The translations under genes were made by a program, and so were the position numbers. Shown piece after piece: positions 377 through 27,762 of a stretch of 40,489 nucleotides of DNA; the stretch's first letter is position 1, and each line of letters opens with the position of its first letter. Source of the stretch: Anaerolineae bacterium. GTDB lineage: Bacteria; Chloroflexota; Anaerolineae; S140-20. Under the pieces are notes generated by a model. That model made no database searches. It saw only the letters and a program-made list of their open reading frames with translations, and had not been told where the DNA came from. The stretch spans positions 1-40,489 of the forward strand of contig JALUTT010000080.1 in assembly GCA_027021705.1 (NCBI GenBank), read 5' to 3'.

Positions 377-1264
377 CTACCACGTGCCCCGATGAAGGTA
401 CTCCGTCAACCGCCGGCCGGCCGCTACCTCCTCCGCCCTGTCCGGCAGCGGCCACTTCAGCGCCTCGTAGAGGGCGAACCGGTAGAGATCGAAGGCGGAG
501 CGGATCAGTTCCCCGTAGATCAGCGCCGCTGTGACCATCCCCCGGTAGGCGAGCAGGGCCACGACCACCCCGACAGGGATGGCCCACCACGCCCACACCG
601 CCCAGACGACGAAGAGCAACCCCCAGGCAAAGAGCCGGGTCGCTTCGTCCAGCCGCCCCCGGGCGCCGCCGATCTCCTCCCGCACCTCCTTGGGCAGCAA
701 GAACCACAGCCGGGGCCAGCAGACCCCCGCCGCCAGCCCGTACCGGACCTGGGGATACTCCTCCGCCGCCCGCAGGAGGTTGCCCACCCGCGTGGGCATC
801 AGGTGAGCGGGGTCGGCCGGGAGGCGGATCCGCTCCACGTCCAGACGGGCGTACTCGGCCTGCTCCCTCGGGGGGAGGCGGACCGGGTCGCCCTCGCACC
901 GCTCGGCCAGCGCCTGCCACCGCTCCTCCATCTGCCGCACCCGCTTCTCCCACCGCCGGGCCAGGGCGAAGCGGAGCCACCACAGGGGCGGGGGCCAGTA
1001 CCCTTCCACCATCCGCAGCACCGTCTCCTGACCTCCCTCCACCACCGAGGCGGTGAAGGCAACCAGGAGCAGCCCGCCCACCAACACCGCCGCCTGCTCC
1101 GGCGTGGAGCGGGCGGTCCACCAGCAGGCCAGGCGCGTCCAGCCGTATCGGTCGGCGTAGGCCAGCAGCCCCCCGGCCCAGAAGGCGAAGGCGGGGGCCA
1201 GGACGCGGGTGGCCCACTTCCCGGCCAACGATTCGCCGATCTCCTTCCAGAAGGCTTCAATCAC
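377..1264 (-). CDS. Multi-pass membrane protein of unknown function (third gene of the CHAT operon)
   Basis: 295-aa ORF with about 4 hydrophobic segments (VLAPAFAFWAGGLLAY; AAVLVGGLLLVAFTASVV; LFAWGLLFVVWAVWAWW; AIPVGVVVALLAY) and a central soluble region (PTRVGNLLRAAEEYPQVRYGL). GTG start with a GAGGTG RBS, overlapping the upstream stop by 8 bp. Confidence 0.8.
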   Translation of the reverse strand: MIEAFWKEIGESLAGKWATRVLAPAFAFWAGGLLAYADRYGWTRLACWWTARSTPEQAAVLVGGLLLVAFTASVVEGGQETVLRMVEGYWPPPLWWLRFALARRWEKRVRQMEERWQALAERCEGDPVRLPPREQAEYARLDVERIRLPADPAHLMPTRVGNLLRAAEEYPQVRYGLAAGVCWPRLWFLLPKEVREEIGGARGRLDEATRLFAWGLLFVVWAVWAWWAIPVGVVVALLAYRGMVTAALIYGELIRSAFDLYRFALYEALKWPLPDRAEEVAAGRRLTEYLHRGTW

Positions 1265-1688
1265 CGGACCTCACCTCCCATTCCGGCACCAGGTCCACCT
1301 GGTGCTGGGGGCAGCGGAGCCGCTGGCCCCTGTGTTGCAGCCGCCGACGGTAGTGGGAGGGGTCCACCGGGCAGACCATCAGGGTGCCTGCCGGGATGGG
1401 TTCCTCCTCGCCGGGGAGCCTCTCGTAGAGGCGGACGGCGGTCTCCGCCCCGCCCAGCTCCTCCACGATGCGGCCCAGCCGTTCTCGGAGGGTGGGGTAC
1501 TCGGCGATGCGGCCCAGGGCGCGGGTGATGGCTTGTTCCCGATGTTCCGGCGAGCGGGCCTGGCGCAGGTCCTGCTCCAGGAGCCGGGCCAGAGGTTCCC
1601 CCTCCTCCCGTCCCAGCAGATCCGGCAGCTCCGGCTTCAACACCCGGAGCGCCTCGACGTACAGTTCCGTTTCGCTCCTCTCGTGCAT
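1257..1688 (-). CDS. Small protein with C-terminal Cys/His zinc-ribbon-like motif (second gene of the CHAT operon)
   Basis: 143-aa ORF with a helical N-terminal part and C-terminal CPVDPSH...CPQH. GAGGAG RBS upstream; overlaps the next gene. Confidence 0.8.
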   Translation of the reverse strand: MHERSETELYVEALRVLKPELPDLLGREEGEPLARLLEQDLRQARSPEHREQAITRALGRIAEYPTLRERLGRIVEELGGAETAVRLYERLPGEEEPIPAGTLMVCPVDPSHYRRRLQHRGQRLRCPQHQVDLVPEWEVRSGD

Positions 1689-1796: not shown

Positions 1797-4700
1797 CTAC
1801 GTTCCCGTATACCCAAACCCTGCCCAGTAGTAGGGATGGGCGAAATCCCGCCCCTCGGGGCGGCGGCGGAGCATATCCCAGAACGCTCCCCGGGCCGTCT
1901 CCTCCGCCATACGGGTGGCGATCAGTTCCGGCAGAGCGGTGCGGAAGAGGGCTTCCTTCTCCTCGTTAGTCGAATCCCGCAGCCAGACCTGGGCCTGCCG
2001 GAGCGCTTGGGGCGGGGCCAGCCCCTCCCCGCGCCAGAGGTCGTAGAAGCGGGCCATCAGGAGGGCGGTGCTGATCTCGCCGACCGCCCACAGGCTCCCC
2101 ACCACCCCGGCCACCCCGGCCTGCAGCAGGCCGGTGGGGAGGCCGATCACCTCCTCGGGGAGTCGGGTGCCCGGCACCGCCGTCTCGCAGGCGGAGAGGA
2201 CGGCCAGCCGCGCCCCCTCCAGGCGCAGGTCGAGGAAGTCGGCCAGGGTGAGGGGGTGGTCCGACTCGGCCATCCGCAGGCCGCTGCGGAGGGGATCGTC
2301 CGGGTCCGCCCAGCCGTGGGTGGAGAAGTGGAGGACGGGGTAGCGGGGGAGCTCCCGGAGGACGGCCTCCCGCGTGGCGGATTCCCCGCCCAACAGCCGC
2401 TGCCGCTCCGGGGGGAAGTGTTCGAGGACGGAGGCCACCTCTTCGTCGGAGAAGCGGAGGGTGCCGTCCGGGTTGTCCACGACGAAGACCCCGTCCGGAG
2501 CGGTGCGGGCAGCGACCCGGCGGGCGGCCCGCAGGGCGTGGGCGCCGGGGGCGTAGGTGATGCAGAGGTCGTCCAGCGCATAGCGGTGGCCGGTGGGCGC
2601 GGCAGGGTCCTCCCGCCAGGCGGCGTGGAGGGGGAGGAGGGAGAGGAGCCCCGTGGGGATGAGGGTGATGGCCCTCACCCCCTCCCCCCGTCCCCCGGTA
2701 GGGGCGACTGGCCGGTCACCCCCGGCGGCGGGGGTGGGGGTGAGGGTTTCCACCACCTCCCCCATCACCGCCTCCCACAGCCAGCGGGTGGTCACGTCCA
2801 GCGTCTGAAACCAGGCCCTGCGGAGCGCCTCTCGGGTCTTGCGGGGAATGCGGCGATCGGTGATGCCGATCCGCCACAGCCGGTACATCGAGAGGTAGCC
2901 GCCACGGGCGGCCTCGATGTCCTCCGGTGCGACCCGGCCCTGCTGCAGGTGGTCGTTGATCCGGCGGTCTTCTTCAGGGGTGGGCGACCAGAGGCGGCGG
3001 TTCAGGGCCTCCTCGGTCAGGTCCGGCAGCCGGACGGCGGTCACCCCGTCGGGGCGACCCGGCAGGTCGCCCCCGGCGTGGACGATGAGGGCCAGGCCGC
3101 CGGCGGGGGTGGCGAGGAGGTAGACGAGGGGGGCATCCCGGGCGGCGGGGAGGACCTGATCGAAGGTGGGGTCTTCCATAAAGTGGGCGAACTCGGGGTA
3201 GACGGCCCCCACCTCCTCCCGAATGGCCTGCTCCGCGGCCTGCACCTCCTCCCAGGCCGCCTTCATCTGTTGCGGCCAATCGGCAGGACGCCGGGGGGAT
3301 TCGCCCTGGGCCAGCAGGTCCCGGAAGCGCTGCCGGGCCTCTTGGTATCGCTGGTGGAGGCGGTTAAACCCCAGGGCGGGCAGCCGTTCCAGATCGCGGC
3401 GGTTCTGTTCCATCGTCTCCCGCAGCAGGCGGGTGCGGCCCGCTTCCAGCGCTTCCACCGCCCGTTCGAGGTCTCCCCGTTGGGCGTGGGCGTAGGCCAG
3501 CCGGGCGGGGATCGCCTGGACCTCCCGCAGCCAGGCGGCTTTCTGTTCGCGCCGGTATTGGACCACGAACAGCCGTCGGATGGTCTGCATCGCGTAGCCG
3601 TAGGCTTCCACTGCCTCGACCCACTCCCGACGCTCCACCGCCCAGTTGCCCCAGTTTCCTCCGGCCATCAGGGCTGCTTCGGGGGCTTTGTCGCTCCCCC
3701 GTTCACAGGCTTTCCGGTAAGCCCGGATCGCCTCCTCCAGGTCCTCCAACCGGCCGGTGCGGGCGTAGCGGTCGCTCAGGCCGGTGCCCAGGTTGGTGAG
3801 GAAGCCGGGGAGGTCGGGGGAGCCTTCCGGGGTGCGGCGGACCGCCTCCCGAGAGGCCCCGATCGCCTCCTCCAGGTCCTCCAGGTGGCCGGTGCGGGCG
3901 TAGCGGTCGCGCAGGCCGGTGCCCAGGTTGGTGAGGTACATAGGGAGGTCTGGGGAGTCGGGCGGGGTGCGGCGGACCGCTTCCCGCCAGACCCCGATCG
4001 CCTCCTCCAGGTCCTCCAAGTGGCCGGTGCGGGCGTAGCGGTCGTGCAGGCCGTTGCCCAGGTTGGTGAGGTACATAGGGAGGTCGGGAGCATCTTCCGG
4101 GGTGCGGCGGATCGCCTCCCGAAAGACCCGTATCGCCTCCTCCAGGTCCTCCATCCGGCCGGTGCGGGCGTAGCGGTCGCTCAGGCCGTTGCCCAGGCTG
4201 TTGAGGTAGCCGGGGAGGTCAGGGGAGTCGGGCGGGGTGCGGCGGACCGCTTCCCGAAAGACTCCGATCGCCTCCTCCAAGTCCTCCATCCGGCCGGTGC
4301 GGGCGTAGCGGTCGCGCAGGCCGGCGCCCAGGCCGGTGAGGATAGAAGGGCGATCGGGGGAGTCTTCTGGGGTGCGGCGGACCGCTTCCCGGTAGACGCG
4401 GATCGCTTCCTCCAGGTCCTCCATCCGGCCGGTGCGGGCGTAGCGGTCGTGCAGGCCGTTGCCCAGGTTGGTGAGGTACATAGGGAGGTCTGGGGAGTCG
4501 GGCGGGGTGCGGCGGACCGCCTCTCGATAGACGCGGACCGCCTCCTCCAGGTCCTCCAAGTGGCCGGTGCGGGCGTAGCGGTCGCGCAGGCCGATGCCCA
4601 GGTTGCTGAGGTACATAGGGAGGTCAGGAGAGTCGGGCGGGGTGCGGCGGACCGCCTCCCGCCAGACCCCGATTGTCTCCTCCAGGTCCTCCATCCGGCC

Positions 4701-7607
4701 GGTGCGGGCGTAGCGGTCGCTCAGGCCGGCGCCCAGGTTGTTGAGGTAGCCGGGGAGGTCAGAGGAGTCGGGCGGGGTGCGGCGGACCGCTTCCCGGTAG
4801 ACGCGGATCGCCTCCTGCAGGTCCTCCAAGTGGCCGGTGCGGGCGTAGCGGTCGCGCAGGCCGGCGCCCAGGTTATTGAGGCGAGAAGGGAAGTCGGGGG
4901 CGTCTTCCGGGGTGAGGCGGACCGCCTCCCGCCAGACCCGTATCGCCTCCTCCAGGTCCTCCAACCGGCCGGTGCGGGCGTAGCGGTCGCGCAGGCCGGC
5001 GCCCAGGTTGGTGAGGTACATAGGGAGGTCGGGAGCATCTTCCGGGGTGCGGCGGACCGCTTCCTGGTAGACGCGGATCGCCTCCTCCAGGTCCTCCATC
5101 CGGCCGGTGCGGGCGTAGCGGTCGCGCAGGCCGGCGCCCAGGCCGGTGAGGATAGAAGGGCGATCGGGGGAGTCTTCTGGGGTGCGGCGGACCGCTTCCT
5201 GGGAGACGCGGATCGCCTCCTCCAGGTCCTCTATCCGGCCGGTGCGGGCGTAGCGGTCGCGCAGGCCGGCGCCCAGGCCGGTGAGGATAGAAGGGCGATC
5301 GGGGGAGTCTTCTGGGGTGCGGCGGACCGCTTCCTGGGAGACGCGGATCGCCTCCTCCAGGTCCTCTATCCGGCCGGTGCGGGCGTAGCGGTCGCGCAGG
5401 CCGGTGCCCAGGTTGTTGAGGTAGCCGGGGAGGTCAGGGGAGTCGGGCGGGGTGCGGCGGACCGCCTCCCGATAGACGCGGATCGCCTCTTCCAGGTCCT
5501 CCAAGTGGCCGGTGCGGGCGTAGCGGTCGTGCAGGCCGTTGCCCAGGTTGGTGAGGTAGCCGGGGAGGTCAGAGGAGTCGGGCGGGGTGCGGCGGACCGC
5601 CTCTCGATAGACGCGGATCGCCTCCTCCAGGTCCTCCATCCGGCCGGTGCGGGCGTAGCGGTTGCTCAGGCCAGTGCCCAGGTTATTGAGGATAGCAGGG
5701 CGGTCGGGGGCGTCTTCCGGGGTGCAGCGGATCGCCTCCCGAAAGACCCGTATCGCCTCCTCCAGGTCCTCCATCCGGCCGGTGCGGGCGTAGCGGGCGC
5801 GCAGGCCGTTGCCCAGGCTGTTGAGGTAGCCGGGGAGGGCGGGGGAGTCGGGCGGGGTGCGACGGACCGCCTCTCGATAGGCCCCGATCGCCTCCTCCAG
5901 GTCCTCCATCCGGCCGGTGCGGGCGTAGCGGGCGCGCAGGCCGTTGCCCAGGCTGTTGAGGTAGCCGGGGAGGTCAGAGGAGTCGGGCGGGGTGCGGCGG
6001 ACCGCCTCCCGAAAGACTCCGATCGCCTCCTCCAAGTCCTCCATCCGGCCGGTGCGGGCGTAGCGGGCGCGCAGGCCGATGCCTAAGTTGTTGAGGTAGC
6101 CGGGGAGGGCGGGGGCGTCTTCCGGGGTGCGGCGGACCGCCTCCCGAAAGACTCCGATCGCCTCCTCCAAGTCCTCCATCCGGCCGGTGCGGGCGTAGCG
6201 GGCGCGCAGGCCGTTGCCCAGGCTGTTGAGGTAGCCGGGGAGGGCGGGGGAGTCTTCCGGGGTGCGGCGGACCGCTTCCCGAAAGACTCCGATCGCCTCC
6301 TCCAAGTCCTCCATCCGGCCGGTGCGGGCGTAGCGGGCGCGCAGGCCGTTGCCCAGGCTGTTGAGGTAGCCGGGGAGGGCGGGGGAGTCGGGCGGGGTGC
6401 GGCGGACCGCCTCCCGCCAGACCCGGATCGCCTCCTCCAGGTCCTCCATCCGGCCGGTGCGGGCGTAGCGGTCGTGCAGGCCGATGCCTAAGTTGCTGAG
6501 GTACATAGGGAGGTCAGGAGAGTCGGGCGGGGTGCGGCGGACCGCCCCCCGCCAGACCCCGATTGCCTCCTCCAGGTCCTCCATCCGGCCGGTGCGGGCG
6601 TAGCGGTCGCTCAGGCCGGTGCCCAGGTTGTTGAGGTACATAGGGAGGTTGGGGGAGTCTTCCGGGGTGCGGCGGACCGCTTCCTGGTAGACGCGGATCG
6701 CTTCCTCCAGGTCCTCCATCCGGCCGGTGCGGGCGTAGTGGGCGCTCAGGCCGATGCCCAGGTTGTTGAGGATAGAAGGGAGGTCGGGGGCATCTTCTGG
6801 GGTGCGGCGGACCGCCTCCTGCCAGAGTGAGAGCGCCCGATCCAGGTCGGCGATCTGGCCCTGCCGCCAGTATCGCCGCAGGTAGGCTCCTCCCGCACCG
6901 TTCCAGGCGGCCAGTTGGAACCGCTCGTCGGCCTGGGCGAAGGCGGGATGGTTCAAGATCCGCTCCCAGGCGGCCACCGCCTCGTTCAAGGCGGCCAGGT
7001 CGCCGGTTTGTTGGTATCGCTGCTCGCCTTCCACAGCGCGGCGGAGGTCCTCCTGAAATTCCGGAGGCACAGGAGGGCCGGTGCCGAGATCGGCGAAGAC
7101 CCGGGCCGCTTCCTCCAGTTTCTCCCGCAGGTCGGGCCGCTCCTCCAATAGCCGTTCCAGGTCTTCCGGGGAGCTGGTCTCGACCCCGGCGGCGGCCAGT
7201 TCGACCAGCAGTTCCCGCAGTTCGGGGGGCATCTGGGCCGCCGCGCGGGCTGCCTCCAGCGCCTGCTCCGGCGTCAGGCCTGCGGCCTCCGCCTGTGCCA
7301 GTGCCTCCGGCGGGAGCATTTTCTCGGCGAAGGCCCGCTCCACCCCCACCTCCCGGCAGCGGCGCAGCAGGGCGCGGTGTTCGTCAAAAACACGGCGGGC
7401 ATTCTCGTCGCCCTGGGCGCGGGCGGCGTCGGCCAGTTGGCCCAGCAGCCCGTCCGCCTCGTCGCTGAGCAGCTCGGGGTGCGCCTCCACGATGCGGCGG
7501 GATTCGGCCCAGGTCTCCGCCTGGATGAAAGCAAAGATCGTTTCCAGCAACTGTCGAGGGTCTGGCCGCCGAGGGCGACGACCGAAGAGCCTGTCCAAGA
7601 ATCCCAT
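1797..7607 (-). CDS. TPR-repeat CHAT-domain (caspase-HetF family) cysteine protease
   Basis: C-terminal CHAT motifs LIPTGLLSLLPLHAA, VLHFSTHG (catalytic His), VLSACET (catalytic Cys), GVVGSLWAV and HPYYWAGF, preceded by 23 tandem 45-aa TPR-like repeats. Start placed at ATG 7607 (MGFLDRLFG) because GGGAGG lies 6 nt upstream; the ORF track starts at 7625. Confidence 0.93.
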   Translation of the reverse strand: MGFLDRLFGRRPRRPDPRQLLETIFAFIQAETWAESRRIVEAHPELLSDEADGLLGQLADAARAQGDENARRVFDEHRALLRRCREVGVERAFAEKMLPPEALAQAEAAGLTPEQALEAARAAAQMPPELRELLVELAAAGVETSSPEDLERLLEERPDLREKLEEAARVFADLGTGPPVPPEFQEDLRRAVEGEQRYQQTGDLAALNEAVAAWERILNHPAFAQADERFQLAAWNGAGGAYLRRYWRQGQIADLDRALSLWQEAVRRTPEDAPDLPSILNNLGIGLSAHYARTGRMEDLEEAIRVYQEAVRRTPEDSPNLPMYLNNLGTGLSDRYARTGRMEDLEEAIGVWRGAVRRTPPDSPDLPMYLSNLGIGLHDRYARTGRMEDLEEAIRVWREAVRRTPPDSPALPGYLNSLGNGLRARYARTGRMEDLEEAIGVFREAVRRTPEDSPALPGYLNSLGNGLRARYARTGRMEDLEEAIGVFREAVRRTPEDAPALPGYLNNLGIGLRARYARTGRMEDLEEAIGVFREAVRRTPPDSSDLPGYLNSLGNGLRARYARTGRMEDLEEAIGAYREAVRRTPPDSPALPGYLNSLGNGLRARYARTGRMEDLEEAIRVFREAIRCTPEDAPDRPAILNNLGTGLSNRYARTGRMEDLEEAIRVYREAVRRTPPDSSDLPGYLTNLGNGLHDRYARTGHLEDLEEAIRVYREAVRRTPPDSPDLPGYLNNLGTGLRDRYARTGRIEDLEEAIRVSQEAVRRTPEDSPDRPSILTGLGAGLRDRYARTGRIEDLEEAIRVSQEAVRRTPEDSPDRPSILTGLGAGLRDRYARTGRMEDLEEAIRVYQEAVRRTPEDAPDLPMYLTNLGAGLRDRYARTGRLEDLEEAIRVWREAVRLTPEDAPDFPSRLNNLGAGLRDRYARTGHLEDLQEAIRVYREAVRRTPPDSSDLPGYLNNLGAGLSDRYARTGRMEDLEETIGVWREAVRRTPPDSPDLPMYLSNLGIGLRDRYARTGHLEDLEEAVRVYREAVRRTPPDSPDLPMYLTNLGNGLHDRYARTGRMEDLEEAIRVYREAVRRTPEDSPDRPSILTGLGAGLRDRYARTGRMEDLEEAIGVFREAVRRTPPDSPDLPGYLNSLGNGLSDRYARTGRMEDLEEAIRVFREAIRRTPEDAPDLPMYLTNLGNGLHDRYARTGHLEDLEEAIGVWREAVRRTPPDSPDLPMYLTNLGTGLRDRYARTGHLEDLEEAIGASREAVRRTPEGSPDLPGFLTNLGTGLSDRYARTGRLEDLEEAIRAYRKACERGSDKAPEAALMAGGNWGNWAVERREWVEAVEAYGYAMQTIRRLFVVQYRREQKAAWLREVQAIPARLAYAHAQRGDLERAVEALEAGRTRLLRETMEQNRRDLERLPALGFNRLHQRYQEARQRFRDLLAQGESPRRPADWPQQMKAAWEEVQAAEQAIREEVGAVYPEFAHFMEDPTFDQVLPAARDAPLVYLLATPAGGLALIVHAGGDLPGRPDGVTAVRLPDLTEEALNRRLWSPTPEEDRRINDHLQQGRVAPEDIEAARGGYLSMYRLWRIGITDRRIPRKTREALRRAWFQTLDVTTRWLWEAVMGEVVETLTPTPAAGGDRPVAPTGGRGEGVRAITLIPTGLLSLLPLHAAWREDPAAPTGHRYALDDLCITYAPGAHALRAARRVAARTAPDGVFVVDNPDGTLRFSDEEVASVLEHFPPERQRLLGGESATREAVLRELPRYPVLHFSTHGWADPDDPLRSGLRMAESDHPLTLADFLDLRLEGARLAVLSACETAVPGTRLPEEVIGLPTGLLQAGVAGVVGSLWAVGEISTALLMARFYDLWRGEGLAPPQALRQAQVWLRDSTNEEKEALFRTALPELIATRMAEETARGAFWDMLRRRPEGRDFAHPYYWAGFGYTGT
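2672..2746. repeat. 75-bp REP-like palindromic element in frame inside the CHAT domain
   Basis: Perfect 11-bp terminal inverted repeat ccctcaccccc/gggggtgaggg enclosing GTAGGGGCGACTGGCCGGTCACCCC. Encodes the Pro/Gly-rich segment LTPTPAAGGDRPVAPTGGRGEGVR. Confidence 0.6.
3678..6782 (-). repeat. Intragenic tandem array: 23 x 135 bp (45-aa TPR-like units)
   Basis: 23 YARTG motifs counted in the translation. The motif cggccggtgcgggcgtag recurs at 135-bp spacing (e.g. 6181, 6316). Confidence 0.95.
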
Positions 7608-7628
7608 CCCTTGCCTCCCATCCACATC

Positions 7629-7749
7629 TCACGTTTCACGCCTCACGCCTCACGTTTCACACTTCACGCTTCACGCTTCACGCCTCACGCCTCACGCTTC
7701 ACGTTTCACGCTTCACGAACCGCCGACCACGGACTGCGGACTGCGGACT
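7629..7749. repeat. Heptamer tandem repeats (TCACGYY x ~12.7, then GCGGACT x ~3)
   Basis: Read directly at 7629-7717 and 7730-7749, immediately upstream of the CHAT gene RBS. Confidence 0.9.
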
Positions 7750-7805: not shown

Positions 7806-8122
7806 ACGGCAGTGCTGAACCACAAAGGGCACCAAGGACACAAAGACCACCAAGGGTGACGAAGAGAAAGCAGCCCTTGGAGCCCTTCGTGCCCGTCGTG
7901 TGCTTGGTGGTCAGACCCGGCACCGCCCGTCCACGGCAGTGCTGAACCACGAAGGGCACCAAGGACACAAAGATCACCAAGGGTGACGAGGAGAGAGCAA
8001 TCCTTTGAGCCCTTTGTGCTCGTCGTGCGCTTGGTGGTCAGACCCGGCACCGCCCGTCCACGGCAGTGCTGAACCACGAAGGGCACCAAGGACACAAAGC
8101 CCACCAAGGGCGACGGAGAGAA
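7806..8122. repeat. 127-bp tandem repeat, about 2.5 copies, each an imperfect hairpin
   Basis: acggcagtgctgaaccacRaagggcaccaaggacacaaag starts at 7806, 7933 and 8060. The second half of each unit (cttYgtg...cttggtggt) is complementary to the first half. Confidence 0.9.
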
Positions 8123-8148
8123 AACCGCGTCGAACCCCCGGCAGGTGC

Positions 8149-9282
8149 TCACGGGCGCAGGACGAGGGGCAGGTATCCGCGCCTGATCGCCGTTCGCGGC
8201 TGAGCGCGTAACGCCTCCACAAGACGGTCCACGTACTCCCGCCGCCGGGCCGGTTCGTCGTAGCTCCAGGCGGTGACGAAGTGGACGATGGCCCCGTCGA
8301 GGGTCGTCTCCGTGCCGCTCACGGTCAGGGATGCCGTCAGGGGCAGCGGCACGTAGACCCCCTCACGGGCCAAGCTGCGGGCCGACAGCTCTGCGTAGAT
8401 CGCCCGCGCAGCCTCAATCGTCCGCTGGGTATCGGTGTAGACGCTCCCGAACTCGCGCCCGTGGGCGTCGTCGTTCTGCGGGTTGGCGGGGTTGTAATCG
8501 CAGGCGTAGACACTGGTATCGCCCAGCGCCGGCACGGTGTGCGTGCCCCAGGGGGCGGGCGGTGTCTGAGCCGCCAGCGCGTCCATACAGTCGGCGTGAG
8601 AGTAAGCGTCGCCCAGGCTGTGCAGGTAGGTGGCGAAAGCCTCCAGGGAGCCGGCCGGCACGGGCATGCTGATCGTCACCGTGCGGGTGATGATGCAGCC
8701 GTTGTTCTGGACCGCCTGCATCAGGGTGAAATCGGTGAGCCGGCCCCAGGCGTAGGCTTCGTACCCCTCCAGCGTCTCGCTGTTCCCCCAGGCCCAATCG
8801 CGCAGGGCGCTCAGGTCGGAGCCCCCTAGGTGGGGAAAGTGGAAAAAGGGTGAGTACGGCCCGAAGCGGGAGGTGACGGCCGACGTATCCGGGTCGAAGC
8901 CGGCCGTGGGCCAGACCTGCCGGGCGCGGTTCTTGCCGGGGCAAGCCAGCAACGGGTTGGGCGGCGCGTAGAACCCCGCGTTGCCGTAGGTATACGAGAC
9001 CGGCGTGCTCGGCAGCACCTCCGAATCCACCAACTGGTCCCAGATCCGCAGCGTGTGGCTGTCTGTGATGGTGAACCCGGCGGCGATTGCCAGAGCCAGG
9101 GTGAGGTCATCGTGCACGGTACTGATCCGACCCTCGGGAAAATCCCCCGTCGGCGGGTAATACGTGCCGTCCCGGTCCCGGAACCCCAGCTCCTCCTCGG
9201 CGAATCCCCAAACCGACACCGCGCCCACCGCCAGGCACAGGCCCAGCGCCACCACCGCGTACAAGAGCCATCGCTGTTTCAT
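8149..9282 (-). CDS. Secreted protein, putative Zn-dependent phospholipase C/P1-nuclease-like fold, with C-terminal YLPLVLR motif
   Basis: Signal peptide MKQRWLLYAVVALGLCLAVGAVSVWG. His/Asp motifs VHDDLT, FFHFPH and YLHSLGDAYSH. Ends GYLPLVLRP. Confidence 0.65.
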   Translation of the reverse strand: MKQRWLLYAVVALGLCLAVGAVSVWGFAEEELGFRDRDGTYYPPTGDFPEGRISTVHDDLTLALAIAAGFTITDSHTLRIWDQLVDSEVLPSTPVSYTYGNAGFYAPPNPLLACPGKNRARQVWPTAGFDPDTSAVTSRFGPYSPFFHFPHLGGSDLSALRDWAWGNSETLEGYEAYAWGRLTDFTLMQAVQNNGCIITRTVTISMPVPAGSLEAFATYLHSLGDAYSHADCMDALAAQTPPAPWGTHTVPALGDTSVYACDYNPANPQNDDAHGREFGSVYTDTQRTIEAARAIYAELSARSLAREGVYVPLPLTASLTVSGTETTLDGAIVHFVTAWSYDEPARRREYVDRLVEALRAQPRTAIRRGYLPLVLRP

Positions 9283-9355
9283 CCTGATCCCCTTTCCGCC
9301 TGTCCGACCCCCTCCCGACCGGGCCGGGTAGCGATTCGTGCATTCGCTCATCCGT

Positions 9356-9649
9356 TCATCCGTTCAGCAGGACGACCGCCCCGGCCGCCTCCAGCCCCAG
9401 GGGGAGGGAGAGCAGGGCGATCACCTGGTGGACCAGGGGGGGATAGGAGGTCACGCTGAAGCCGGTGTACCAGCGGGGCTCCCAAAGCGACCACCAGCCC
9501 CGGCGGTAGTGGTCGGCGAAGAAGAGGTGGACGTAGGCGTCGAAGCTGCGGCGGTAGCGGGCGGCGGCGACCAGGGGCCAATGGAAGGCGAGGGCCAGGG
9601 CCACCGCCTGACGCAGCCGGCGGTCTGGTGAGGAAAGCGGCCTCCCCAT
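9356..9649 (-). pseudogene. Truncated N-terminal fragment of a membrane GT-C-like glycosyltransferase (6-pyruvoyl-tetrahydropterin-synthase-related membrane family)
   Basis: SFDAYVHLFFADHY...WEPRWYTGFSVTSYPPLVHQ resembles the first loop of these normally 500+ aa proteins. The ORF stops after ~97 aa at a short catccgtt repeat. Confidence 0.5.
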
Positions 9650-9723
9650 AGCGTGTCGTTCGCCGACCCGCCCCACGGCAGGCGGGTGCGGAAAACCCGC
9701 CCTACGATGGAACACGAAATGAC

Positions 9724-9818
9724 CCCTCCCGCAGGTTAGGCGCGTTTCCGACGCGAAACCGTGCTTCCAATAGCCCATCGGGGCTGAAAGCGCCTTCGAC
9801 CGGTGACCTGCGGGAGGG
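9724..9818. repeat. Stem-loop/MITE-like element with a 13-bp terminal inverted repeat
   Basis: ccctcccgcaggt (9724-9736) pairs with acctgcgggaggg (9806-9818). Internal hairpins cgcgt-ttccg-acgcg and agccc-atc-gggct. Confidence 0.55.
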
Positions 9819-9854
9819 TAGGCTGAATAGATACGTCCTCAGAAACGCCTGCCC

Positions 9855-10796
9855 TCACGCCGTCAGGGGGAGGGGCACGGACTCCAGCACCTCCCGGACC
9901 ACCTGGCCGGCCGTCCGGCCTCGCAGGCTGCTCTCCGGCTTCAGGAGCAGGCGGTGGGTCAGGGTCAGCGGGGCCATCCGCTTCACATCGTCGGGCAGCA
10001 CGTAGTCCCGGCCCCGCAGGGCGGCCAGCGCCTGAGCGGTCTTGAAGAGGGCCAGGCTGCCCCGGGGGCTGGCCCCCAGCGCCAGGTCGGGGTGCTCCCG
10101 GGTCGCCTGGACCAGCCGGACCACGTATGCCTCCACCGTCTCGTCCACGTGGACCTCCCACACCCGGCGGGCCAGGTCGGGCAGCCTCTCCCCCTCGACC
10201 ACCTGGCCCAGGGATTCGATGGGGTGCTCCCGCTGGAGGCGGCGGAGGATGCGCCGCTCCTCGTCGGCGTCCGGGTAGCCCAGGGAGAGCCGGAGGAGGA
10301 AGCGGTCCAACTGGGCCTCGGGGAGGGGGAAGGTCCCCTCGTACTCGATGGGGTTTTGGGTGGCCAGAACGATGAAGGGGCGGGGGAGGGGGTAGGTCAC
10401 GCCGTCCACCGTCACCTGCCGCTCGCCCATCGCCTCCAGGAGGGCGGACTGGGTGCGGGGGGTGGCCCGGTTGATCTCGTCGGCCAGGAGGACGTGGACG
10501 AAGGCGGGGCCGGGGCGGAACTCGAACTCCCGCGTCTTCTGGTTGAAGACGCTGACACCGGTGATGTCGTTGGGGAGCAGGTCGGGGGTGCACTGGAGCC
10601 GCTTGAAGGAGAGGCCGAGGGAGGCGGCGATGGCGCGGGCGAGCATCGTCTTGCCCACGCCGGGCACGTCCTCGATGAGGACGTGGCCCTCGCACAGGAG
10701 CGCCACGAGCACCATCTCGATGGCCTCCCGCTTCCCCACGATCACCTTCTCCACGTTGGCGATGACCCGTTGGGCGAAGGACTGTACGGGGTTCAC
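9855..10796 (-). CDS. moxR: MoxR-family AAA+ ATPase
   Basis: [13 protein letters not shown]alker [22 protein letters not shown] and [22 protein letters not shown]. Confidence 0.95.
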
Positions 10797-17469: not shown

Positions 17470-18117
17470 TCAGGCCAGCCCTGATTCCCACTCGTACTCG
17501 TACATCACGACCCACACCGCCTTGCGGAGGGCGTCGGCGAACCGGGCCATCTCCTTGCGCAAGTACCGGCGGGTGTCGGCGCTGGGGAAGTAGTTGTCCT
17601 CCAGGTATCCTCGTTGGGCCCGTTCGTCCACGGCGCGGGCTTCCTCACCGGTCAGGAGCCTCACCTGGTCAATGTAGCCGAGGCTTTCTTCCTCGATGAG
17701 TCGCTTCTTACGTAAGGTAATGAATGCTTTCCAAGGCTCGGGACGATCCCACCAGGGTGGTCCCTCGAAGATAAAGCAGGCCTCGCTGGCTTCTTGGGGG
17801 ACGATCCACACCCGGCCCTGGTGCACGATGACCCATCGGGCCTCTTGCAGGGCGCTGGCTACCTGATCCTGCTGGTGCTGTAGGCTTTCCTGAGCGGGGG
17901 TTGGATGGACGGCGGCCTCGTTGCTGCTCCGTGCCTGCTCGTCCCAAAAGCGGGCCTCCCACCCAGGGAGGAGGAGTGTGCTCTTGTCGCCGGGCTCCAC
18001 CTCCATCCTCCGGTGGGAATAGGCCGCCAGAAGGCGGTCCAGGTCCCACCAAGCCGGGAGGTCAAAGACCGGCGCCTGTTGGGTCACCACGTAGGTTCTC
18101 AGAGATATTGCCGGCAT
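17470..18117 (-). CDS. Hypothetical protein
   Basis: 215-aa ORF with an AAGGTGAG RBS, co-oriented directly after the methyltransferase. No recognised motif. Confidence 0.6.
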   Translation of the reverse strand: MPAISLRTYVVTQQAPVFDLPAWWDLDRLLAAYSHRRMEVEPGDKSTLLLPGWEARFWDEQARSSNEAAVHPTPAQESLQHQQDQVASALQEARWVIVHQGRVWIVPQEASEACFIFEGPPWWDRPEPWKAFITLRKKRLIEEESLGYIDQVRLLTGEEARAVDERAQRGYLEDNYFPSADTRRYLRKEMARFADALRKAVWVVMYEYEWESGLA

Positions 18118-18135
18118 CGTCTCACCTTACCGGGG

Positions 18136-19209
18136 TTAAAGGGCTCGGTCTTGGTTTCCACTTCTTTCCGGGGTCACCTCATAGCTCTCTGAGGATTCGA
18201 GGAGAGCCATCTGGGAGGCCCTCGGGAGCTTCCTCTCCTCGAGAGCCTCATCTTCTGTCCCCTGTTCAGCTTGTTCAGCGAACAAGGGGAGCTGCTGACG
18301 TAGGTCCGTAAAGCGGAACTTGGACGCCTCCAGATACTCCTCGACCAGCTCGAAAGCCAGCCACCGCCGTCCCAGCCGCTCAGCGACCTCGCCCGTCACA
18401 TTGCTTCCGGCAAAGGGATCGAGTACCAGATCACCGGGGTCAGTCAAGAATTTGATGAAGAACTCTGGGAGGCCGTGGGGGAACCGGGCGGGGTGGGGCT
18501 TTATCCCACGGCGTCGGCACTCTCGCAAGTAGGCACTATTGGAATCCGTGTTGGCCAGGATCAGGAGGTTAGGGGGGATAGAGCCTTTGTTGTCCTTGGC
18601 AAAGTGCTCGGAGATGTCGTGTCCTGACGGGCGGCGCATAGGCTTGTAGCCCCGTTCCAGCAATTTCTTCATCGAATCGCTATAGGGCTGGAGCACACGC
18701 CAGTTGCTGGCTTTTGGGAAAGGGGTCTTGGAGAGCCACCAGATTGGGTCAACGGCGTCCTTCACGCGGATGCGTCGCACCGTTACCCACTCAGCGGGTG
18801 ATGGTAGCTTGGAAGGGTTGTACCAGTAGAACTCCTGGGCCAGGTGGAATCCCACGGTCTTGCACAAGGCGATGAGCAGCTCAAAATGGTATAGCGAGCG
18901 GGTTGGCTGTCCTTTGACCCACGTCCCGCCGATGTCAATCACCAGGCTTCCGCTCTCTTTGAGCACCCGTTTGAACTCCAGGGCGAAATCCAGGAACCAG
19001 GGCACATAGTCTTCGGCCTCTACGTTGCCGTACTCCTTCTTGCGTTTCAGGGCGAAGGGAGGGGATGTGACGATCAGGTCAACGGTCTCGGGCTCCATCT
19101 GGCGCAGATAGTTCAGCGCATCCCCCAGGTAAGCCGCTCCATACGGTGTTGTGTAAAAAGGCTCCGTTTTGAAGGAAAAGTGGGCCATCGTACTCCCTTC
19201 TCTTGTCAC
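18136..19209 (-). CDS. Site-specific N4-cytosine DNA methyltransferase, beta class, M.PvuII-like
   Basis: TSPPFALKRKKEYGN (motif IV) precedes DPFAGSNVTG (motif I). NPSKLPSPAEWV, RVKDAV, RPSGHDI and HPARFP match the M.PvuII sequence as I recall it. GTGA overlap with the upstream endonuclease stop. Confidence 0.9.
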   Translation of the reverse strand: MTREGSTMAHFSFKTEPFYTTPYGAAYLGDALNYLRQMEPETVDLIVTSPPFALKRKKEYGNVEAEDYVPWFLDFALEFKRVLKESGSLVIDIGGTWVKGQPTRSLYHFELLIALCKTVGFHLAQEFYWYNPSKLPSPAEWVTVRRIRVKDAVDPIWWLSKTPFPKASNWRVLQPYSDSMKKLLERGYKPMRRPSGHDISEHFAKDNKGSIPPNLLILANTDSNSAYLRECRRRGIKPHPARFPHGLPEFFIKFLTDPGDLVLDPFAGSNVTGEVAERLGRRWLAFELVEEYLEASKFRFTDLRQQLPLFAEQAEQGTEDEALEERKLPRASQMALLESSESYEVTPERSGNQDRAL

Positions 19210-20621
19210 CGATCTGTCAAGTAGTCGGTACGCTCCTTGATCTTCATCGCTCGCTCGGCTTTGCTGTTCAAGATGGCTACGATCTCTGTCGGGTCGCGGC
19301 TGATGCGGTTCAGCTCTGAGCCGTTAAGCAGGATTACGTTGAGGTTGGAAGTCCTCATCACATGGTTGGCGTAGCCGTAGGCATCTCTGGTAAAGTCGCC
19401 TGTTGTCACGAGCATCACCACATTGGAGTAGATGAAGGTCAGGGACAGTCCTACTTCCCGGGCCACATCGTCCAACCGAACGGTCGCTGTGTTCTTCGCC
19501 TGAATCTGCCAGCGGCTGAAGATGAGCCGTGCTCCTTCAACAATCACGTCTACCTCAGCACCGCCAGTCTCCGCACTCCGAGTACGCCATCCTTTGAAGT
19601 CAAGATCGAGCAGGCGCGTCAAGTAGATGGCAAGAAGTTCTAATGCCTGCCCCTTGGTGTGCTTGTCAGGTGACTTGAGGTCCGCCAGAATTTGAGAGAG
19701 GGGACGCTCGAAGACCTCCTTGGGAACCAGGCCGGCCTTCTCGGCCGCGGCTGCGAGAATGGGATCGGAGACCTCCTCACGAAATTTAGAAGTACGGGAG
19801 ACTTCGTAAGGTTTCGCCCCCCGCCCTGCTGTGGATTTTGTCACCTGGATGTACCCCAGGTCCTGCAAGGGGAACAGAACCGCTTTTGGCAACTGCTTAT
19901 GGTTGTACTCTACGCCGTAGAGGGCGCTTGCCAAATCTGCCACTTTATTGGCTACAAGGGGATCGGGTTCGGCGATGCGGGTCAGAGCTCTCAGGAAGGC
20001 CCGTTGTGCTGCGTCGAGATGGGTTAGGCGATCAATGGCGTCCAGCCCTATCCCCAGCAGAGCTTCCAAGCGCTCCCGGTTGACCTCGTATAGCCTTGGA
20101 CCACCCTTTGCCCCTGCGTCGAAGATGCCTGCCTGGGCCAGCCATAGGCGCATACTGCTGAGGTGTACAGCACCGCGAGGAACGTGGAGCCCCCGTTGCT
20201 CCAAGCGCTTTCTCAGCGTGTGCAGAGTGATCTTCTCACCGGCTTGCTGCATCGCCTCGATGGTCTCCACAAAGATGAGGCCACGCCGATGGAGTAAGAT
20301 ATGCTTGGCAAAAGCCTCGTAGAGAGCGGTTGGATCATTCACGAGAGCCAGCAAGTCTCTCGCCAAAGGGGTGGGAGTCGCTCCGTGTTCGTCCAGCAGC
20401 CCATATGCTCGCAAGGCCAGCACGGTGTTATCGGCCAGCTTCCACCGCTGCGCTTCGGCGTGGGACGCGAAGAAAGCTTCCCGGATAGCCTCGGTGATTT
20501 TATCCCGGTCCCCTGCATAAACGTGGAGGATCTGCAAGACCTGGGGTAGGTCAACCTGATTGGGGCTGAATTGAGCGCCGAAAGGGATCTCGCTTTTCTT
20601 GCCCACCGGTGCCTCGACCAC
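19206..20621 (-). CDS. Restriction endonuclease with a C-terminal Mrr-like catalytic domain
   Basis: KGQALELLA...GGAEVDVIVE...WQIQAKN...LVTTGDFT is an Mrr-type (D/E)-D-QxK pattern. Translationally coupled to the methyltransferase; visibly lower GC than the flanks. Confidence 0.8.
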   Translation of the reverse strand: MVEAPVGKKSEIPFGAQFSPNQVDLPQVLQILHVYAGDRDKITEAIREAFFASHAEAQRWKLADNTVLALRAYGLLDEHGATPTPLARDLLALVNDPTALYEAFAKHILLHRRGLIFVETIEAMQQAGEKITLHTLRKRLEQRGLHVPRGAVHLSSMRLWLAQAGIFDAGAKGGPRLYEVNRERLEALLGIGLDAIDRLTHLDAAQRAFLRALTRIAEPDPLVANKVADLASALYGVEYNHKQLPKAVLFPLQDLGYIQVTKSTAGRGAKPYEVSRTSKFREEVSDPILAAAAEKAGLVPKEVFERPLSQILADLKSPDKHTKGQALELLAIYLTRLLDLDFKGWRTRSAETGGAEVDVIVEGARLIFSRWQIQAKNTATVRLDDVAREVGLSLTFIYSNVVMLVTTGDFTRDAYGYANHVMRTSNLNVILLNGSELNRISRDPTEIVAILNSKAERAMKIKERTDYLTDR

Positions 20622-24120: not shown

Positions 24121-26328
24121 TCAGGTCGGAGCAGCCCCGCTGTTGCCGGTCGCCAGTTCCTCCCGCACGCGCCAGTAAAGGGCCTCTGCCTTCAACTCAT
24201 CGAGCCGGTAGCAGGGACCGCCCAAATGGTCGGCCAGCGCCTGGGCTAGGCCCTGATCGAAGGCGGCGTGTTCCATGTTGATGACGACGGCGCGGATGCC
24301 GGCCTCGCGGATCAGATCGGCGGCGCGGTAGGCTTCCTCCTGGGGGGGCATGTCCCCCACGGAGACGTTGCCGGCCCCGTCGGTGAGCAGGATCAGCAGG
24401 GGGGCCGTCTCCGGGTGCATCTGCATCTCCCGCTTCAGGACCTGGTAGGCGAGGAGGAGGCCGGCGGAGAGGGGGGTCTTTCCCCCCACCGGGAGGTCCA
24501 CCAATGCCTTCTGGGCCAGCTCGACGCTGTTGGTGGGGGGGAGCACCAGCCGGGCGTCGTTCTTCTGGAAGACGATTAGCCCAACCCGGTCCCGGCGCTG
24601 GTAAGCATCGGCCAGGAGGGACATGATGGCCCCCTTGGTCGCCTCCATCCGTTCGGCCACGGCCATGGACCAACTGGCGTCCACGACGAAGAGGATGAGG
24701 TTGGAGGTCCGGCGCACCCGGACCTTGCGCTGGTAGTCCTGGGGGCGCAGGATGAGGGCGGGGCCTCCGGGCCGACGGCGCTCCTTCTGATGGGGGGCAG
24801 CGGCCCGCAGCGTGGCGTCGAAGGCCAGGTCGGAGGGATCGTTAGGGGAGGGGCGGGCCTGGATGTAGCGACCGCGCTTGCGGGTCGTGCGGGTGGTGCT
24901 CCGCCGGCCGGCCCTCGAGCGGGTCATCCGGTCCAGAGGGGTGTCCAGGCGCTGGGGTTTGAAGACCTCCCCCACCGACGTGGTCTCGCCCCCTGGCTTG
25001 CCCTGCTCCGAGGCCTTTTTGGGGCTTCGGGGGATCGCCTGGGGTGTCGCTTCCCGCTGGCGAAGCCCCTGCTCCGACGAGGATTCGCCTTCCTCAGCGC
25101 CGGTCAGGTTTTTTTTTACCTGCTGGGCTTCTCCCCCCTCCTGGGAGGGCTGGGCCGAGGGCTCCCCGGGGCCTTCGGCGTAGGCCCGCTCCAGTCGGGT
25201 CGCCAGGTCGTGCAGCGTGATCTCCGTCGGCTGAAGGGGGTGCCGCTTCAGGCGGTGGGGCAGGGCCAGCTCCGCCGCCAGCAGGATGTCCTCCTCGGTG
25301 ATCCGCTCCCGGTTCTGCCAGGCCGCATGGGTGCGGGCCGTCTTCAGGATCACCAGGTCGGGCCGATGGCCGTCCACCCCCAGGCTGGCCATCAGGTGGG
25401 CGATGGCGGCCAGGTCCTGGGGGCTATAGCCCACCTGGGGCAGCCGTTCCCGCGCTTGGGCGATCTTCTGGGAGAGGACCTGTTCCCGGGGCGCCCACTC
25501 GGCCCGGAACCCCTCAGGGTCGGACTCGAAGGCCAGGTTCCGCTCTATGATCTCCATCCGCGCCCGGGGGTCGAGGACGCTGTGGATGTCCACGCAGAGG
25601 GCGAAGCGGTCCAGGAGCTGGGGGCGCAGGTCCCCTTCCTCCGGGTTCATCGTGCCCACCAGGATGAAACGGGCCGGGTGCCGGAAGGAGATCCCCTCCC
25701 GCTCGACGATGTTGACCCCCATCGCGGCGGCGTCCAGGAGCAGGTCCACGACGTGATCGTCAAGCAGGTTGACCTCGTCCACGTAGAGGAGCCCTCGGTT
25801 GGCGGCCGCCAGCACACCGGGCTCGAAGCGGCGTTCCCCTTTCTGGATGGCCCGTTCGATGTCCAGCGTGCCGACGACCTGGTCCTCCGTGGCGCTGACG
25901 GGCAGGTTGACGAAGCGGGTGCGTCGGTAGGCGACAGGGAGTTCCTCACCGCGCTCAACGCGCTCCAGACAGAGAGTGCACCAGCCGGTGGGATCAAAGG
26001 GGTCGCAGGAAAAGGGGCAGTCGGCCACGACGGCGATCTCGGGCAGCAAGGCCGCCAGCGCTCGAGCCGCCGTGGACTTGGCAGTTCCCCGCTCCCCGCG
26101 AATGAGCACACCGCCAATGTGAGGGTTGATGGCGTTGAGCACCAGGGCCTGCTTCATCCGCTCCTGGTTGACGATGGCGGTGAAGGGGAAGAGCACCCGG
26201 TGGGCTCCATCCAGAGGGTAAGCAGAGGGGGAGATCCCACCCGGCCCGGTGTCATCCTTGTAGCGCTGGAGGAGTTGGTGGACCTTCGCCGTCAGAGGGC
26301 GCAGCGGTAGGGTTTCCAAGAAGGACAT
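24121..26328 (-). CDS. Mg/Co-chelatase subunit ChlD/BchD-like (AAA+ domain, linker, vWA domain)
   Basis: FPFTAIV, GERGTAKST, LYVDEVNLL, GTMNPEEGDLRPQLLDRF, and vWA motifs FVVDASWSM and LTDG. Confidence 0.92.
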   Translation of the reverse strand: MSFLETLPLRPLTAKVHQLLQRYKDDTGPGGISPSAYPLDGAHRVLFPFTAIVNQERMKQALVLNAINPHIGGVLIRGERGTAKSTAARALAALLPEIAVVADCPFSCDPFDPTGWCTLCLERVERGEELPVAYRRTRFVNLPVSATEDQVVGTLDIERAIQKGERRFEPGVLAAANRGLLYVDEVNLLDDHVVDLLLDAAAMGVNIVEREGISFRHPARFILVGTMNPEEGDLRPQLLDRFALCVDIHSVLDPRARMEIIERNLAFESDPEGFRAEWAPREQVLSQKIAQARERLPQVGYSPQDLAAIAHLMASLGVDGHRPDLVILKTARTHAAWQNRERITEEDILLAAELALPHRLKRHPLQPTEITLHDLATRLERAYAEGPGEPSAQPSQEGGEAQQVKKNLTGAEEGESSSEQGLRQREATPQAIPRSPKKASEQGKPGGETTSVGEVFKPQRLDTPLDRMTRSRAGRRSTTRTTRKRGRYIQARPSPNDPSDLAFDATLRAAAPHQKERRRPGGPALILRPQDYQRKVRVRRTSNLILFVVDASWSMAVAERMEATKGAIMSLLADAYQRRDRVGLIVFQKNDARLVLPPTNSVELAQKALVDLPVGGKTPLSAGLLLAYQVLKREMQMHPETAPLLILLTDGAGNVSVGDMPPQEEAYRAADLIREAGIRAVVINMEHAAFDQGLAQALADHLGGPCYRLDELKAEALYWRVREELATGNSGAAPT
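25095..25119 (-). other. Putative programmed frameshift/slippage site (A9) in the chelatase linker
   Basis: Minus strand GTA AAA AAA AAC CTG ACC GGC GCT GAG (T9 at 25109-25117 on +). The -1 frame reads AAA CCT GAC CGG CGC TGA; the +1 frame reads AAA ACC TGA. Confidence 0.6.
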
Positions 26329-26365
26329 TGGCTGACTTCCCGCGCGAGAACAGATCGTGAGTTGG

Positions 26366-27755: not shown

Positions 27756-27762
27756 TGGTCAG

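Follow-up and report, generated by a model that had tools for sequence, protein, structure and literature searches.

The 40,489-nucleotide contig analysed here (JALUTT010000080.1, assembly GCA_027021705.1, positions 1 to 40,489 of the forward strand; referred to in its entirety as the window) belongs to an uncultured Anaerolineae bacterium (Chloroflexi), recovered from a hydrothermal vent sample. On its minus strand it encodes a protein in which a long array of near-identical tetratricopeptide repeat (TPR) units is fused to a C-terminal caspase-like protease domain of the CHAT family. Amino-acid variation within this array is concentrated in a small number of columns of the 45-residue unit, the strongest of which appear to occupy the canonical concave ligand-contact positions of the TPR fold, and three of them (3, 4 and 10) are hypervariable in every one of 14 other internally conserved family arrays. 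A preliminary description of the sequence had proposed that the array serves as a diversifying sensor for the protease. This remains the best reading, with support for part of it: a CHAT protease has the array as its repeat arm, and the variable columns recur in the other arrays, while we infer the ligand binding, the control and activation of the protease, its substrate and its biological role.

The open reading frame (ORF) extends over 1797..7625 on the minus strand and comprises 1942 codons counted from a GTG. The ATG at 7607 is the likely start, since a GGGAGG is located 6 nt upstream and an independently predicted protein (P0002) begins at the identical methionine. The gene and the encoded protein comprise the following parts, with residues counted from the GTG:

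1800..7607, minus strand: TPR-CHAT protease gene, 1936 residues from the ATG at 7607, stop codon at 1797-1799, G+C at third codon positions (GC3) 0.88
6918..7607, minus strand: N-terminal helical region, residues 7-236, with the module ETWAESRRIVEAHPELL; no Pfam family (sub-threshold matches only)
6783..6917, minus strand: N-cap half unit, residues 237-281, ending in LWQEAVRRTPEDAPD and resembling helix B plus the loop of a unit; helical in the model
3813..6782, minus strand: TPR units 1-22, residues 282-1271, in a 45-residue register (AlphaFold2; Pfam TPR_10 and TPR-S)
3678..3812, minus strand: unit 23, the C-cap, residues 1272-1316, its second half degenerate
2790..3677, minus strand: linker, residues 1317-1612, more helical hairpins and then a small beta/alpha domain (secondary structure of the model, predicted local distance difference test (pLDDT) 86.4)
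1809..2789, minus strand: CHAT caspase-like protease domain, residues 1613-1939 (Pfam PF12770)
2316-2318 and 2187-2189, minus strand: predicted catalytic His1770 and Cys1813, respectively, from alignment to Csx29/TPR-CHAT chains

The Pfam assignments of the two main parts lie far above their cut-offs, with TPR_10 (PF13374) scoring 209.3 bits (cut-off 27.5), TPR-S (PF20308) 110.9 bits (cut-off 27.6) and CHAT (PF12770) 183.2 bits (cut-off 24). A nucleoside triphosphatase (NTPase) domain of the NACHT or NB-ARC type is absent among the 21 Pfam families that match the whole protein at E <= 0.01, and the two proteins encoded downstream are likewise without any NTPase family in Pfam. An export signal was not seen in the protease.

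The motif YARTG occurs 23 times in the ORF at a spacing of exactly 45 residues. In a register starting at LP, the 23 units correspond to residues 282-1316 and to 3678-6782 on the minus strand, and Tandem Repeats Finder (TRF) reports a 135-bp period with 22.9 copies and 87% matches at 3722-6819, so that the 23 repeats of 45 residues of the preliminary description are borne out. The same applies to its claims that variation is concentrated at fixed sites and draws on a small recurring vocabulary. Across the 22 full units, which contain 148 departures from the consensus, 19 of the 45 columns are invariant at the amino-acid level (1.6 expected if the departures were spread evenly), while 74% of the departures fall in the 11 most variable columns, against a maximum of 53% in 10,000 uniform simulations, and no variable column uses more than four residues. 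The most variable columns (3, 4, 6, 7, 10, 13 and 14) lie on one face of helix A, where the seven residues form 16 distinct combinations in the 22 units, GYNSNRA occurring four times and SITGARD three times. Exposure alone cannot explain this pattern, since the charged, exposed helix-B columns 23, 24 and 27 are invariant.

At the DNA level the scaffold had been described as almost invariant, a claim that is correct only in part. Nucleotide identity between units averages 85.7% (range 77.8-98.5%), 60 of the 135 nucleotide sites vary (22 of them third positions), a single codon is used in all 23 units in only 11 codon columns, and the synonymous divergence (pS) of the scaffold is 0.14; mean amino-acid identity between whole units is 0.77. 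The ratio of nonsynonymous to synonymous divergence (pN/pS), from Nei-Gojobori counts pooled over 231 non-independent unit pairs without a significance test, amounts to 1.98 for the seven helix-A columns, against 0.18 for the 30 scaffold columns; taken over all 15 variable columns it is 1.15. Variant codons often differ by two or three bases, as with GGC, ATG and TCT in column 3. Association between variable columns is restricted to near neighbours: seven of 105 pairs are associated at p <= 0.01, all of them inside columns 1-10 or 21-22. This is consistent with shuffling by short exchanges, although assembly chimeras would give the same result. Scaffold identity is 0.87 inside the window protein and 0.54-0.75 to the units of its relatives, and recent expansion or exchange within each gene is therefore indicated.

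An AlphaFold2 model of residues 237-746, built without an alignment, reached a pLDDT of 94.3 and repeats with a strict 45-residue rhythm, each unit consisting of helix A (columns 1-19), a turn (20-21), helix B (22-38) and a loop (39-45). The best Foldseek matches of this model are the TPR superhelix of O-GlcNAc transferase (1w3b; template modelling (TM) score 0.75 by target) and designed consensus TPR superhelices, and model and matches agree in showing helix-turn-helix units stacked as a TPR superhelix. When the TPR part was compared with solved structures by sequence, the nearest match was a Sel1 protein (E 4e-5). The unit motif L5-x-x-L8-G9-x-x-L12 is taken here to represent the canonical TPR motif W4-x-x-L7-G8-x-x-Y11, and under this alignment columns 3, 4, 6, 7, 10, 13 and 14 equate to TPR positions 2, 3, 5, 6, 9, 12 and 13. 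In helix B, the 34-residue Pfam models place each column eight above the canonical position, with A28, column 32 and A35 equivalent to A20, F24 and A27. According to the available text of Magliery and Regan (2005, PMC1261162), TPR positions 2, 5, 9, 12, 13, 33 and 34 are the most variable and sit exposed on the concave surface, and the peptide in HOP co-crystals is contacted by positions 2, 5, 6, 9, 12 and 13. The invariant L5, L8, G9, L12 and Y16 of the window units lie opposite to the variable side of helix A. Motif alignment, helix periodicity and published TPR geometry together suggest that the strongest variable columns occupy canonical concave ligand-contact positions.

The pattern recurs outside the window. 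The C-terminal 611 residues as a query retrieved 742 relatives of 1068-3399 residues, and at least five units matching the window-unit profile were found in 57 of the 120 relatives listed, nearly all at a 45-residue spacing. Mean unit identity within these proteins ranges from 0.27 to 0.83 across the family, which thus includes both homogenised and diverged arrays. Recurrence was assessed in 14 other proteins with a mean unit identity of at least 0.64, several of them closely related and representing approximately six consensus scaffolds, with hypervariability distributed as follows:

column 3: hypervariable in 14 of 14 other arrays
column 4: hypervariable in 14 of 14 other arrays
column 10: hypervariable in 14 of 14 other arrays
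column 13: hypervariable in 12 of 14 other arrays
column 14: hypervariable in 11 of 14 other arrays
column 32: hypervariable in 10 of 14 other arrays

Among the matches listed for the C-terminal 611-residue query, P0002 alone is 100% identical and the next is 53% identical. Shorter proteins were sought with an N-terminal query, and among the matches listed none is nearer than a fragment from locus L072 at 83%. This closest relative has flanking segments that are 83-92% identical to those of the window protein and three units of the shared vocabulary, its contig ending 111 nt later.

The number and order of the units must be considered apart from their variation. The genome containing the window is a draft of 183 contigs (94.9% complete), and a second public version of the protein stands against the array as assembled and against the reading built upon it. 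P0002, derived from a different public source (ENA), has N-terminal (275 residues) and C-terminal (626 residues) flanks identical to those of the window protein, yet it contains 12 units, which tile the window array as units 1-4.9, 19.9-21.2 and 14.2-17.7, pieces of 8-27 residues, and units 22-23. Deletions alone cannot yield the backward jump in this series, and hence at least one version is chimeric or two alleles exist. The exact window protein was not found in a collection of 15 billion proteins. Parts of the region are contained in four public runs labelled hydrothermal vent metagenome, the best of which (X1) holds 80% of the sampled words. The Logan contigs of X1 cover the flanks at a depth of ~58-64 and stop at 3756 and 6756, while the array is represented by short pieces only, 75 of which fit two places; a minor joint from 6338 to 3788 is listed at depth 12, and summed depths are 36-276 in the array against ~60 in the flanks and are unreadable as copy number. 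With a break at either border of the array, these contigs leave the order of the 23 units neither confirmed nor refuted.

It is quite possible, if somewhat short of an even chance, that the units are genuine but that one path through a short-read repeat graph has set how many there are (23), how they are ordered and which local duplications are reported, with the true allele being different or several alleles coexisting. The draft state of the genome, the 12 out-of-order units between identical flanks in P0002 and the behaviour of the X1 contigs all fit this explanation, as do the end of the L072 contig 111 nt beyond its three-unit array and the truncation of many recorded family members at contig ends. 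Against it, no exact repeat in the array is longer than 172 nt, the length of the longest, and just four measure 100 nt or more, so that a paired-read assembler supplied with 150-nt reads could in principle have resolved the array; the 40.5 kb contig furthermore reads through the array in frame, and the short, finely mosaic version in P0002 is the likelier mis-join. The column variation pattern is independent of unit order and recurs in other genomes. The units and their variation pattern are real, whereas a single metagenome assembly, contradicted by P0002, underlies the figure of 23, the arrangement of the units and the local duplications, all of which are unverified. The local duplications noted previously are matched by the repeated helix-A septets, with the order of the units contradicted by P0002. 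Reshuffling by recombination, also proposed earlier, finds agreement in the near-neighbour association of columns; the only comparison between assemblies, 23 against 12 units, may be an assembly effect. The same caveat applies to any difference in repeat number, the 23 and 12 units between identical flanks and the three in the L072 relative all coming from short-read assemblies.

In the CHAT domain, the HFSTHG (His1770) and LSACET (Cys1813) motifs align to the HG and ACET motifs of solved TPR-CHAT chains, whose His and Cys are presumably the catalytic residues of Csx29. Across 24 aligned family members the His, Gly and Cys of these motifs do not vary, and the putative caspase-like catalytic pair His1770/Cys1813 is apparently intact, judging from sequence. 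A model of residues 1227-1942, generated with the 24 aligned relatives, reached a pLDDT of 86.4, and Foldseek matched it to the TPR-CHAT protein of Craspase (E 7e-14), followed by separase and the CHAT anti-sigma factor DdvA, all with low TM scores (0.26-0.42). Csx29, the TPR-CHAT protein of the type III-E CRISPR system Craspase (PDB 8d9f, 7y9x), shares with the window protein a helical TPR-like region followed by CHAT and is its best structural match, but the TM score is 0.34-0.39. By analogy with Craspase, the window protease may be held inactive until a recognition event takes place. The two proteins differ in other respects: the NCBIfam model NF041237 gives the window protein 42.1 bits against a cut-off of 300, the scan of window ORFs revealed neither Cas7-11/gRAMP nor any other cas gene, and the TPR region of Csx29 is short and docks on Cas7-11, whereas the window protein has a long array of near-identical units.

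The array is probably the sensor arm of a cytoplasmic, ligand-gated TPR-CHAT protease that acts via the proteins encoded downstream. Approximately 23 units, in each of which helix A spans 19 residues, helix B 17 and the loop 7, would form a superhelical solenoid, with the units kept alike through recent duplication or inter-unit exchange. Differences would be retained mainly at the seven lumen-facing helix-A positions, the aromatic position of helix B and the loop, and unequal crossing-over or gene conversion may be the source of this variety. The lumen of the solenoid could bind a ligand, which is probably part of a foreign or non-kin protein in extended form, and binding would release or assemble the CHAT domain with its His1770/Cys1813 pair. 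The protease would then cut a target, most likely the 143- or the 295-residue downstream protein, with membrane damage or growth arrest as the possible outcome if the membrane protein harms the cell. Precedents for this logic, by analogy, may be seen in Craspase and in the CHAT proteases linked to gasdermins. CHAT or caspase-like proteases fused to TPR or other repeats are encoded beside bacterial gasdermins, and for such proteases a direct coupling between recognition of a ligand and cleavage of the effector was proposed (Johnson et al., preprint 10.1101/2021.06.07.447441, available text). The window protease is similarly repeat-fused and encoded beside a membrane protein; unlike at the gasdermin loci, its neighbours match no gasdermin or other Pfam family, and a 143-residue zinc-ribbon-like gene lies between the protease gene and that of the 295-residue protein.

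The repeat pattern itself is already known from fast-evolving immune-type receptors of fungi and bacteria, and the window array is a further case. In the WD, ANK and TPR arms of fungal NOD-like receptors (NLRs; NOD, nucleotide-binding oligomerization domain), highly internally conserved (HIC) repeats vary at their binding positions, are polymorphic in number and are under positive selection (Dyrka et al. 2014, PMC4986451), and similar repeats occur in bacterial NLR-like proteins, including those of Chloroflexi (Dyrka et al. 2020, preprint 10.1101/2020.01.06.895854), as far as the available parts of both texts go. As in the HIC repeats of fungal NLRs such as Podospora HET-E/NWD and NB-ARC-TPR proteins, the window units are far more alike than usual TPR units, their variation lies at the predicted binding surface with signs of excess amino-acid change there, the repeat number is possibly polymorphic, and the host lineage is related to filamentous bacteria and contains many such genes. 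Marold et al. in 2015 reportedly described similar repeats in bacterial NLR-like proteins, as relayed by a later preprint. The window unit has 45 residues, against 42 in TPR_10 and 34 in classical TPRs. The comparison with fungal NLRs drawn in the preliminary description applies to the repeats but not to the architecture: NACHT and NB-ARC are lacking, a C-terminal protease is attached directly to the repeats, which do not stand C-terminal to a NOD, and, since the defining NTPase is absent, the window protein is not an NLR. The code of transcription activator-like effectors (TALEs), invoked in the same context, resides in a two-residue repeat variable di-residue (RVD) of each repeat. No support for a code of this type was obtained; at least seven positions vary per window unit, and nothing suggests that one unit reads one ligand element.

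Several further observations weigh against an array diversified for recognition. The seven helix-A columns hold 67 of the 148 departures (45%), and the remainder fall in the turn (columns 21-22), helix B (columns 30 and 32) and the loop (columns 41-45), with column 32 varying between Y, F, W and S at the canonical buried position F24; the strongest columns sit at canonical contact positions, but variation is not confined to the groove. The moment of variability of helix A (0.48 at 196 degrees) was equalled in 460 of 10,000 shuffles and is marginal (~0.05); that of the 14 other arrays is similarly directed (201 degrees; 544 of 10,000 shuffles), and helix B has no comparable helical moment. Concave placement was derived from alignment, periodicity and published geometry in place of a measured model surface, and the pN/pS values share the non-independence of the pooled unit pairs. 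Homogenisation is not constant in the family, since some arrays have diverged units (identity 0.27-0.5). Set against the HIC threshold of at least 85% identity over at least 100 residues in the available text of Dyrka et al. (2014), the window array falls short for whole units, with a mean pairwise identity of 0.77, and shows 0.87 for scaffold columns and 85.7% for nucleotides. PADLOC has no defence model for the protease beyond a marginal BovA match (E 0.0013), no family member has a known ligand, substrate or activity, and the NLR mechanism is not transferable as it stands because the protein is without the NTPase switch.

Part of these observations could be accommodated by an array that binds a fixed partner as an adaptor or structural scaffold, in which the variable positions are weakly constrained surface sites of recent duplicates and no diversifying recognition takes place. 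With a scaffold pS of 0.14-0.18 and non-identical units, ordinary post-duplication divergence could explain some of the pattern, the turn, helix B and loop vary too, family members with diverged units exist and no ligand is known. Such an explanation is nevertheless unlikely, given that hypervariability falls on the same few columns in all 14 other arrays, which are built on different consensus scaffolds, that exposed charged helix-B columns are invariant while the helix-A face varies, and that codons differ by two or three bases with a pN/pS of ~2 at the helix-A columns against 0.18 elsewhere. The protein could alternatively take part in housekeeping or developmental regulated proteolysis, as do HetF or separase, rather than in immunity, its TPR arm serving as a ruler or docking platform. 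Non-immune CHAT proteases exist, separase is among the Foldseek matches, the gene is located among housekeeping genes with no mobile-element genes among the window ORFs scanned, and PADLOC gave no match. This role, too, appears improbable: 40 related genomes yielded no close orthologue, with 47% identity for the best match and nothing at all in 20 of them, a patchiness unlike that of housekeeping genes; the genome contains several paralogues and many other internally conserved repeat genes; and a fixed cellular substrate would not predict hypervariable binding positions.

Two genes are situated directly downstream of the gene for this proposed sensor protease:

1257..1688, minus strand: downstream gene 1, a 143-residue soluble protein with an invariant C-terminal CPVDP-H...CP-H motif, zinc-ribbon-like
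377..1264, minus strand: downstream gene 2, a predicted 295-residue multi-pass membrane protein with 3-4 hydrophobic helices, overlapping gene 1 by 8 nt

The hydrophobic segments of the 295-residue protein (residues 57-75, 211-229 and 231-249) were located by Kyte-Doolittle hydropathy. The conservation of the neighbours was determined with tblastn over 90 loci, 26 of which were tabulated for position. Homologues of the 295-residue protein were found at 22 of the 90 loci (E <= 1e-5), and in all 21 of these that were tabulated the homologue is encoded just downstream of the CHAT gene. Where a row of the table extends 600 bp or more beyond the CHAT gene, the homologue is present in 20 of 21 cases; in two instances a pair of rows represents the same contig in two collections. 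At the 22nd locus (L010, in a related genome, G038), the match shares the strand of the CHAT gene and is located no more than 0.5 kb downstream of the match to CHAT. No tblastn match to this protein was obtained at more distant CHAT loci. Homologues of the 143-residue protein directly follow the CHAT gene at 11 of the 26 tabulated loci, all with a CHAT identity of at least 46%. Neither downstream protein has a Pfam family even at E <= 1, nor a match in NCBIfam or PADLOC. In the ESM Atlas both fall near unnamed clusters, mostly of Actinomycetota and Cyanobacteriota, and a structure search of the Atlas with the 143-residue protein revealed a weak likeness to HMBD zinc-binding domains (TM < 0.5). 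A complex prediction for the C-terminal 716 residues of the protease with the 143-residue protein scored 0.10 (mark 0.32) and speaks neither for nor against a complex.

The TPR-CHAT, 143-residue and 295-residue proteins constitute a conserved gene cassette, which is the most original aspect of the locus. No description of the three-gene cassette was found in a limited literature search, and the TPR-CHAT architecture of the window is not described in the available text of Kaur et al. (2020 and 2021). It may tentatively be proposed, as a possibility with the balance against it, that the cassette represents an undescribed NOD-less family of systems for cell suicide or non-self recognition, present in Chloroflexi as well as other bacteria, in which a recombining, hypervariable TPR solenoid would itself be the diversified receptor and the protease would directly unleash a new type of membrane effector without an NTPase switch. 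Uniform arrays that vary only at binding positions are one of the few gene-internal routes, besides retroelement mutagenesis, by which microbes could renew a receptor at speed. Most documented cases are fungal NLRs, and the window carries the pattern to a Chloroflexi protease without the NLR NTPase switch. A diversity-generating retroelement was also considered and rejected, no reverse transcriptase being found among the window ORFs scanned. The recurrence of the variable columns in 14 of 14 arrays provides concrete positions for experiments on binding and specificity, and in the unannotated downstream pair there are candidates, open to testing, for what the protease cuts and for its effector. 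The two conflicting public assemblies are a practical warning against the evolutionary use of array counts or orders from metagenome-assembled genomes without long reads.

At the other end of the protein, stretches homologous to the N-terminal helical region are found in relatives, often following a CpXC zinc ribbon (PF14353). Most relatives start with this zinc ribbon, which the window protein does not have, and some contain two copies of the helical module TWxESRRILEAHPELL (for example L072:6525-8111 among the proteins compared). Many long in-frame tandem arrays with 69-96% matches are present elsewhere in the same genome, including 34-residue HEAT units (32.7 copies), 42-residue WD40 units (19.8 and 12.5 copies) and 46-residue TPR units (15.9 copies), among others. 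One of the TPR arrays sits with an AAA_16 STAND-like ATPase, and a second TPR-CHAT protein has 47-residue units (12.6 copies). Arrays of this set, with 81-90% matches, are located at C117:92609-95868, C52:9680-12450, C144:49489-51961, C24:13140-14710, C131:1973-3748 and C49:48077-50264, and on contigs C3, C133 and C88.

Two further repeat features occupy the space upstream of the TPR-CHAT gene:

7626..7716, minus strand: (GTGARRY)x13 heptamer tract, directly 5' of the TPR-CHAT gene
7806..8123, no strand assigned: 127-bp repeat, 2.5 copies (TRF), in the upstream intergenic space

Tracts of the GTGARRY type occur at 21 places in the genome, one of them directly before the TPR-CHAT paralogue on contig C131. 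A role as a specific regulator was rejected, as such tracts also precede AIR-synthase-like, acyl-CoA dehydrogenase, MFS, GatB, AMP-binding and KAS III genes; being found genome-wide before ordinary metabolic genes, the tract is a general intergenic repeat. We take it to resemble the short tandem heptamer repeats of cyanobacteria. The 127-bp repeat is one of a dispersed intergenic family, for which the genome has 55 matches, many of them at the ends of contigs, and copies also occur just downstream of the TPR paralogue on contig C49 and near the CHAT genes on contigs C131 and C108.

Further upstream, at 8149-10796 on the minus strand, are a MoxR-type AAA_3 gene (9855-10796) and then two ORFs (140 and 400 residues) without a Pfam family; DUF58 and vWA, the usual MoxR partners, were not detected in this interval. 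The MoxR-type gene and the two intervening ORFs were rejected as parts of the system because they do not recur beside relatives. The neighbouring housekeeping genes include those for a D-Tyr-tRNA deacylase and an aminotransferase as well as tRNAs. The G+C content of the window is 0.58-0.74 per 2-kb block. Positions 18001-20000 have a G+C of 0.575 (~0.65-0.73 in the surroundings), with no ORF passing the GC3 filter and no Rfam match at gathering thresholds. A 790-residue protein with a Mg-chelatase-like AAA domain, an AAA lid and a vWA domain is encoded at 24121-26493 on the minus strand, and three tRNA genes are arranged in a row at 27571-27835 on the same strand.

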